DNA of 64,000 nt from Escherichia coli (GTDB taxonomy: Bacteria; Pseudomonadota; Gammaproteobacteria; Enterobacterales; Enterobacteriaceae): NCBI RefSeq assembly GCF_003018255.1, contig NZ_CP027440.1; one strand, given 5' to 3'. A program made the position numbers and the translations under genes. The notes under the pieces were generated by a model. That model was not told the origin of the DNA, did no database searches, and saw only the letters and a list, made by a program, of their open reading frames with translations. Below are positions 32,284-34,040 of this stretch, piece after piece. Position 1 is the stretch's first letter, and each line of letters begins with the position of its first letter.

Positions 32284-33093
32284 ATGACGAAGCATACTCT
32301 TGAGCAACTGGCGGCGGATTTACGTCGCGCCGCAGAGCAGGGCGAAGCGATTGCGCCGCTGCGCGATCTGATTGGTATCGATAACGCTGAAGCGGCCTAC
32401 GCCATTCAGCACATCAATGTGCAACACGACGTCGCTCAGGGACGGCGAGTGGTGGGGCGCAAAGTGGGGCTGACGCATCCGAAAGTGCAGCAACAACTGG
32501 GCGTTGATCAACCGGATTTCGGGACATTATTTGCCGACATGTGTTATGGCGATAACGAAACCATTCCTTTTTCCCGTGTTCTGCAACCCCGCATTGAAGC
32601 GGAGATTGCACTGGTGTTGAACCGCGATCTACCCGCAACCGATATCACCTTCGACGAATTGTATAACGCCATTGAATGGGTACTTCCGGCGCTGGAAGTG
32701 GTGGGGAGCCGCATTCGCGACTGGTCGATTCAGTTTGTCGATACCGTGGCAGATAACGCTTCCTGCGGGGTGTATGTCATCGGCGGTCCGGCGCAACGTC
32801 CGGCGGGGTTAGACCTGAAAAACTGCGCCATGAAGATGACGCGTAATAACGAAGAGGTTTCCAGCGGGCGCGGCAGCGAATGCCTGGGACATCCGCTTAA
32901 TGCCGCCGTCTGGCTGGCACGCAAAATGGCCAGCCTGGGTGAACCGCTGCGCGCCGGAGATATCATTCTTACCGGGGCATTAGGTCCGATGGTGGCGGTG
33001 AATGCGGGCGATCGTTTTGAAGCCCATATTGAAGGCATAGGTTCAGTTGCTGCGACATTTTCAAGCGCAGCCCCAAAAGGAAGTCTGTCATGA
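32284..33093 (+). CDS. mhpD: 2-keto-4-pentenoate hydratase
   Basis: 269 aa. Confidence 0.95.
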
Positions 33094-34040
33094 GTAAGCG
33101 TAAAGTCGCCATTATCGGTTCAGGCAACATTGGCACCGATCTGATGATTAAAATTTTGCGTCACGGCCAGCATCTGGAGATGGCGGTGATGGTCGGCATT
33201 GATCCTCAGTCCGACGGTCTGGCGCGTGCCAGACGTATGGGCGTCGCCACCACCCATGAAGGGGTGATCGGCCTGATGAACATGCCTGAATTTGCTGATA
33301 TCGACATTGTATTTGATGCGACCAGCGCGGGTGCGCATGTGAAAAACGATGCCGCTTTGCGCGAAGCGAAACCGGATATTCGCTTAATTGACCTGACGCC
33401 TGCTGCCATCGGCCCCTACTGCGTGCCGGTCGTTAACCTCGAGGAGAACGTCGCTCAACTGAACGTCAACATGGTCACCTGCGGCGGCCAGGCCACCATT
33501 CCAATGGTGGCGGCAGTTTCACGCGTGGCGCGTGTTCATTACGCCGAAATTATCGCTTCTATTGCCAGTAAATCTGCCGGACCTGGCACGCGTGCCAATA
33601 TCGATGAATTTACGGAAACCACTTCGCGCGCCATTGAAGTGGTGGGTGGCGCGGCAAAAGGGAAGGCGATTATTGTGCTTAACCCAGCAGAGCCACCGTT
33701 GATGATGCGTGACACGGTGTATGTATTGAGCGACGAAGCTTCACAAGATGATATCGAAGCCTCAATCAATGAAATGGCTGAGGCGGTGCAGGCTTACGTA
33801 CCGGGTTATCGCCTGAAACAGCGCGTGCAGTTTGAAGTTATCCCGCAGGATAAACCGGTTAATTTGCCGGGCGTGGGGCAGTTCTCCGGACTGAAAACGG
33901 CGGTCTGGCTGGAAGTCGAAGGCGCAGCGCATTATCTGCCTGCCTATGCAGGCAACCTCGACATTATGACTTCCAGTGCGCTGGCGACAGCGGAAAAAAT
34001 GGCCCAGTCACTGGCGCGCAAGGCAGGAGAAGCGGCATGA
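33090..34040 (+). CDS. mhpF: acetaldehyde dehydrogenase (acylating)
   Basis: 316 aa; start overlaps the mhpD stop. Confidence 0.95.

Follow-up and report, generated by a model that had tools for sequence, protein, structure and literature searches.

In Escherichia coli, as across 1,695 species, the modal spacing between neighbouring genes is -4, and genome-wide, precisely the spacings -4, -1 and -8 are sharply overrepresented, with the values flanking them depleted (PMC10666635, PMC12548453). In the E. coli genome, 707 of 2,987 pairs (23.7%) are spaced between -8 and +6, the commonest spacing being -4, then -1 and -8 (PMC10666635), and short-spaced pairs are 4.5-fold enriched in subunits of heteromeric complexes (PMC10666635, PMC12548453). 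Coupling efficiency is highest at spacings of -4 to +3 nt, falls steeply as the gap grows and more steeply still as the overlap grows, and an internal Shine-Dalgarno sequence is often, but not always, needed (PMC12548453, PMC10666635, PMC6728339). When five native E. coli ATGA pairs were examined in reporters, four proved to be coupled, the exception being bioBF, which initiated de novo (PMC6728339).

Here we analysed seven overlapping gene junctions in a 64,000-nt stretch of the E. coli chromosome (hereafter the window). They very probably represent the ordinary operon kind of junction that is commonest in bacteria, in which a gene's stop codon has bases in common with the start codon of its downstream neighbour (two of them in the -4 NTGA form), with termination-reinitiation coupling as the likely mechanism. 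The junctions resemble the known E. coli ATGA pairs in geometry, in an intragenic Shine-Dalgarno sequence 5-8 nt upstream of the start, in organism and in genome-wide frequency. They differ from the coupled pairs in that two belong to the less efficient -8 and -11 types, which would be expected to couple less well than -4, and in that coupling here is predicted.

Window and gene content

The window aligned over its full length with complete E. coli genomes at 99-100% identity (megablast), and RefSeq annotation carried over from three strains gave 57 intact CDSs in window coordinates. It represents a chromosome segment from an accessory ABC transporter to proC that takes in prp, codBA, cyn, lac, mhp, frm and tauABCD, with the following gene order:

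Window start: accessory ABC importer (substrate-binding protein cut by the window edge, ATPase, two permeases), then yahK, yahM, yahN, yahO
After yahO: prpR, prpBCDE; codBA; cynR, cynTSX; lacAYZI
After lac: mhpR, mhpABCDFE, mhpT; yaiL; frmB, frmA, frmR
After frm: yaiO, yaiX-like gene, yaiP, yaiS-like ORF; tauABCD
After tau: hemB, ehaB, iprA, ampH, sbmA, yaiW, onward to phoA, psiF, adrA, proC

The importer is of the sugar/AI-2 type (binding protein, ATPase and two permeases; 1-4207, + strand, upstream of yahK) and lies inside the region 1-7400. Of 5,426 complete E. coli genomes, only 2,212 cover 80% or more of this region; the count, which refers to the region as a whole, suggests an accessory insertion. 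Four Rfam matches to the REP-type naRNA4 (RF02564; 70-81 bits, + strand) were located at 14876-15140 and 37157-37235; the prpE-codB spacer contains three of them in tandem and the yaiL-frmB spacer the fourth. In the most similar genome, that of strain DETEC-S792, an IS200C transposase separates frmB and frmA (L001 30270-30728), and the window lacks it at the corresponding position (~38140-38230).

Three further genes merit comment with regard to their reading frames. The 982-aa autotransporter ORF of ehaB (yaiT; 48607-51555, + strand) runs without interruption in the window; in K-12 the gene is broken by an insertion sequence. A yaiS-like ORF of 228 aa for a PIG-L deacetylase-like protein (42374-43060, - strand) is intact and has an identical counterpart in strain JNE23-011, although RefSeq flags only a partial pseudogene in this region. 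The longest mhpC ORF, from GTG 31345, would give a 46-nt overlap with mhpB, and the RefSeq start is ATG 31408 (+17), preceded by AGGAG.

Overlapping junctions

An earlier note, made from the DNA sequence, had listed seven overlaps, all of which are present to single-base precision and concordant with RefSeq annotation; its gene names and overlap lengths are likewise correct. The interval to which it assigned them, 33090-34040, coincides exactly with mhpF, and the other five junctions on its list lie elsewhere in the window. The genes and junctions are:

32284-33093, + strand: mhpD, 2-keto-4-pentenoate hydratase, the gene upstream of the first mhp overlap (RefSeq)
33090-34040, + strand: mhpF, acetaldehyde dehydrogenase (acylating), 316 aa (RefSeq, 100% identical CDS)
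34037-35050, + strand: mhpE, 4-hydroxy-2-oxovalerate aldolase, 337 aa, partner subunit of MhpF (RefSeq)
33090-33093, + strand: mhpD/mhpF junction ATGA, spacing -4; mhpF start at 33090-33092, mhpD stop TGA at 33091-33093
34037-34040, + strand: mhpF/mhpE junction ATGA, spacing -4
45391-45394, + strand: junction ATGA of tauB (44627-45394) and tauC (45391-46218), spacing -4
46215-46218, + strand: junction ATGA of tauC and tauD (46215-47066), spacing -4
3251-3254, + strand: junction ATGA of ABC permease 1 (2283-3254) and permease 2 (3251-4207), spacing -4
2283-2290, + strand: junction ATGGCTGA of the sugar-type ABC ATPase (806-2290) and permease 1, spacing -8
16543-16553, + strand: junction GTGTCGAATAA of codB (15294-16553) and codA (16543-17826), spacing -11; codA start GTG, codB stop TAA

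Five junctions thus belong to the -4 NTGA class, and all five read ATGA (3251, 33090, 34037, 45391 and 46215). RefSeq genomes with 99-100% identity to the window carry the same seven starts in their annotation, and none of the junctions gave a regulatory RNA in an Rfam scan.

Among the 39 same-strand neighbour pairs in the window, five are spaced at -4, one at -8, one at -11, two at +1 and one at -35, the last of these being doubtful since it rests on a CTG start. With five of the 14-15 short junctions at exactly -4 (p ~5e-6 to 5e-5 against a uniform null), the pile-up at this spacing is non-random. However, the overlaps, which had been described as widespread, occur at ordinary E. coli frequency: spacings of -8 to +6 account for eight of the 39 pairs (20.5%), compared with 23.7% genome-wide (binomial p = 0.85), which rules out an enrichment of overlaps in the window.

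Other short spacings were observed that the earlier note had not listed. Two pairs abut at +1, mhpA/mhpB (TGAtATG, 30444-30446) and yaiX-like/yaiO (40607-40609), and both fall within the range of spacings reported to couple as efficiently as -4. The doubtful -35 overlap joins yaiP (41168-42364, - strand) and the yaiX-like gene for an LbetaH acetyltransferase (40609-41202, - strand), whose RefSeq start is a CTG without a Shine-Dalgarno sequence (duplex dG +1.9) and whose longest ORF, from ATG 41319, would extend the overlap with yaiP to 152 nt. An E. coli-specific '+10' spacing class is represented by tauA/tauB (+12, 44614-44627), sbmA/yaiW (+12, 54994-55007) and mhpC/mhpD (+9, 32274-32284), where the Shine-Dalgarno sequence lies inside the gap and is strong for tauB (dG -11.6) and yaiW (-8.7), with mhpD at -6.1.

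Start codons and Shine-Dalgarno sites

In-frame start candidates were enumerated for all seven downstream genes. In every case, the annotated start is the sole in-frame candidate with a Shine-Dalgarno sequence at a spacer of 5-8 nt, and the duplex free energies at these seven starts range from -5.7 to -10.8 kcal/mol. The sites include AAGGA for mhpF (8-nt spacer), AGGAG for mhpE (7 nt), GGAGG for tauC (7 nt), GGAGGT for permease 1 (5 nt), GGAG for permease 2 (6 nt) and GGAGG for codA (6 nt). For mhpF, mhpE, tauC, tauD and permease 1 the annotated start is also the first start codon past an in-frame stop. Alignment of 19 homologues places the conserved motifs GSGNIG of MhpF and DVTLRDG of MhpE only 6-14 residues past the start, which excludes a later start for either gene: mhpF offers no alternative in-frame start ahead of GSGNIG, and DVTLRDG begins at residue 10 of MhpE.

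We considered whether some overlaps could be annotation artefacts, with true starts elsewhere and real junctions that are gaps or longer overlaps. Gene callers prefer long ORFs, in-frame upstream alternatives exist for permease 2 (GTG 3221) and codA (ATG 16528), the only two genes for which the overlap length hinges on start choice, and a comparable ambiguity is seen in Azospirillum, where tauC is annotated at +59, yet an ATG there would give -4. Against this, neither upstream alternative has any Shine-Dalgarno sequence, whereas a GGAG or GGAGG precedes the annotated starts at 6 nt, and on this placement misannotated starts were rejected for permease 2 and codA. The remaining five genes start at the first opportunity past an in-frame stop, and the next candidate for mhpF or mhpE would delete GSGNIG or DVTLRDG, respectively. 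Danielsen et al. are said to have established the GTG start of codA experimentally in 1992. Together, these points make an artefactual origin of the overlaps extremely improbable. The proposal that the overlaps help to confirm the chosen starts needs to be reworded: the starts are correct, but it is Shine-Dalgarno placement and N-terminal motifs that confirm them, and the overlap itself serves only as a prior.

Complex partners among the overlapping pairs

The two proteins encoded at the mhpF/mhpE junction match the two chains of a single crystal structure, MhpF with chain B (E = 1.7e-160) and MhpE with chain A (E = 1.4e-184) of PDB 1NVM, and their homologues occur together in PDB entries 1NVM, 8IH7, 4JN6 and 4LRS/4LRT. 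Since these homologues co-crystallise, MhpF and MhpE are predicted to be subunits of one complex, and the E. coli pair would form an aldolase-dehydrogenase of the DmpFG type, as judged from the homologue structures. Lee et al. reportedly found in 2006 that production and solubility of MhpE depended on mhpF upstream. TauB and TauC, and likewise the ATPase with its two permeases, are annotated as parts of ABC importers.

For MhpD/MhpF, TauC/TauD and CodB/CodA, we know of no complex formation. MhpD is a hydratase, TauD a soluble dioxygenase and CodA a deaminase that is paired with the permease CodB, which makes them pathway partners, not complex partners. Because these products are not complex partners, the overlaps of mhpD/mhpF, tauC/tauD and codB/codA say nothing on stoichiometry, and indicate at most a co-expression of pathway partners. 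Coupling would plausibly make functional sense for MhpF/MhpE, for TauB/TauC and for the ATPase with permeases 1 and 2. The earlier note had read the overlaps as an indication of stoichiometric co-expression within each module; for the complex pairs, coupling is indeed plausible, but this reading does not extend to the three other pairs, and it is weakened by the presence of a Shine-Dalgarno sequence at every downstream gene and by the bioBF precedent.

Conservation of spacing in mhp and tau loci

A tblastn search with MhpF against annotated plasmids returned 358 records, from which 20 diverse loci were compared (E. coli and 19 distant loci). In each of these, the dehydrogenase gene lies next to the aldolase gene on the same strand, at spacings from -4 to +18; the two overlap in eight of the 19 distant loci and are spaced by +2 to +18 in the other 11. 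Spacings from dehydrogenase to aldolase are distributed as follows:

-4: E. coli, Klebsiella, Mycobacterium, Rhodococcus, Streptomyces, Thermus
-1: Novosphingobium, Sinorhizobium
+2 to +18: the remaining 11 loci, in the usual gene order
Inverted gene order (aldolase first): Phaeobacter, with the overlap again -4

The window locus is similar to loci encoding DmpFG/BphIJ/HsaFG-type complexes (1NVM, 8IH7, 4JN6, 4LRS), in that both chains are matched and the genes are adjacent and co-directional in every locus examined. However, the spacing differs within this family, being -4 in E. coli, Klebsiella, Actinomycetota and Thermus, and +8 to +18 in most catabolic plasmids of Pseudomonadota, including the nah-type pDTG1 and the mhp cluster of pSTY. 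The latter, on a Pseudomonas plasmid, is spaced at +12 and +11 at the two junctions that are both -4 in E. coli, and encodes an MhpF that is 82% identical to the E. coli protein and an MhpE with the same N-terminus. In Klebsiella, mhpD and mhpF overlap at -8. Overlaps tend to occur in GC-richer loci (mean GC 0.65 vs 0.56, p = 0.057). Across these loci, it is the very tight linkage of the complex-subunit genes that is conserved, and the ATGA itself is interchangeable with a spacer of ~10 nt that bears a Shine-Dalgarno sequence.

A stronger version of coupling can be envisaged for this family, in which mhpD-mhpF-mhpE would form a strict three-gene ribosome relay in enterobacteria, with mhpD translation setting the amount of the complex, and relatives spaced at about +10 would have switched to independent initiation. 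We regard such a relay as improbable. If true, it would amount to a lineage-specific toggle, linked in part to GC content, between two modes of balancing the subunits of one complex.

The importer genes show a comparable pattern. The overlap of tauB and tauC is -4 or -8 in four of five distant tau loci, the fifth being that of Azospirillum with its ambiguous start, so that TauABC-type importer operons share an overlap of 4 or 8 nt at this junction in E. coli, Acinetobacter, Sinorhizobium, Gemmobacter and Caballeronia. The accessory sugar/AI-2-type importer of the window has the same style of overlap. Other junctions of the tau operon differ: tauA and tauB are separated by +12 with a strong Shine-Dalgarno sequence of tauB's own, which fits a separate and higher synthesis of the binding protein, and tauC/tauD joins a transporter subunit to a soluble enzyme. 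The only comparable tauC/tauD junction, in Acinetobacter, is spaced at +8.

Coupling and its alternatives

Under termination-reinitiation, a ribosome ending the upstream gene would terminate on or beside the downstream start. The Shine-Dalgarno sequence would be found 5-8 nt ahead of this start within the upstream coding sequence, and because of this position the ribosome or its 30S subunit could re-initiate locally. Translation of the upstream gene may also hold the site unfolded for new ribosomes, and output of the downstream gene would then follow upstream translation. Since the published optimum for coupling is -4 to +3, the five -4 junctions have the right anatomy for such a mechanism. 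Geometry, starts, Shine-Dalgarno sites, complex homology and tight adjacency were read directly from the data, and coupling at the seven pairs, together with its efficiency, is a plausible prediction.

One prediction is that overlapped sites are held closed by mRNA structure until the upstream ribosome opens them, and for this we computed ensemble opening energies at 56 starts in the window. Over the region from -18 to +10, the mean was 11.2 kcal/mol for the seven overlapped starts (range 6.8-19.2) and 9.8 kcal/mol for the 49 others (median 9.3; p = 0.18, n = 7), and these predicted energies show no sign of a structural occlusion that would make the overlapped initiation regions dependent on upstream translation. 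The difference is not significant and weighs neither for nor against coupling. Each downstream gene could initiate independently, because it has a competent Shine-Dalgarno sequence of its own.

An alternative is that the overlaps are neutral by-products of compact operons, with downstream genes translated independently and the overlap playing no role in coupling or stoichiometry. An A ahead of a TGA stop is all that an ATGA requires, and it can readily arise by drift or when an earlier stop or start is lost. Neutrality would also agree with the well-placed Shine-Dalgarno sequences of all seven downstream genes, the absence of extra predicted structure at their initiation sites, the flipping of spacing between overlap and ~+10 nt among close and distant homologues, the GC trend of the overlaps and the three pairs whose products are not known as complex partners, and it has a precedent in bioBF (PMC6728339). 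However, it is difficult to reconcile with the genome-wide excess precisely at -4, -1 and -8 and the depletion on either side, with the coupling measured in four of five native E. coli ATGA pairs (PMC6728339) and its steep decay with distance, and with the enrichment of complex subunits among short-spaced pairs. Furthermore, even the spaced dehydrogenase-aldolase homologues lie no further apart than +18 nt, where coupling still operates. We consequently judge neutrality to be unlikely, though worth keeping in view, and favour ordinary operon junctions with termination-reinitiation coupling. The overlaps are compatible with coupling and are no proof of it or of stoichiometry, bioBF being the published exception.

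Implications

The seven overlaps are textbook operon architecture and as such already known. Caution is needed before taking an overlap to prove coupling or 1:1 output, because tight adjacency of the dehydrogenase and aldolase genes is universal while overlap swaps with a spacer of ~10 nt. Beyond annotation, the overlaps have little significance; within it, they support regarding each of mhpDFE, tauBCD, codBA and the ABC importer's three genes as one unit of translation, with a practical bearing on the design of non-polar deletions and on the production of MhpE, which is best co-expressed with MhpF.
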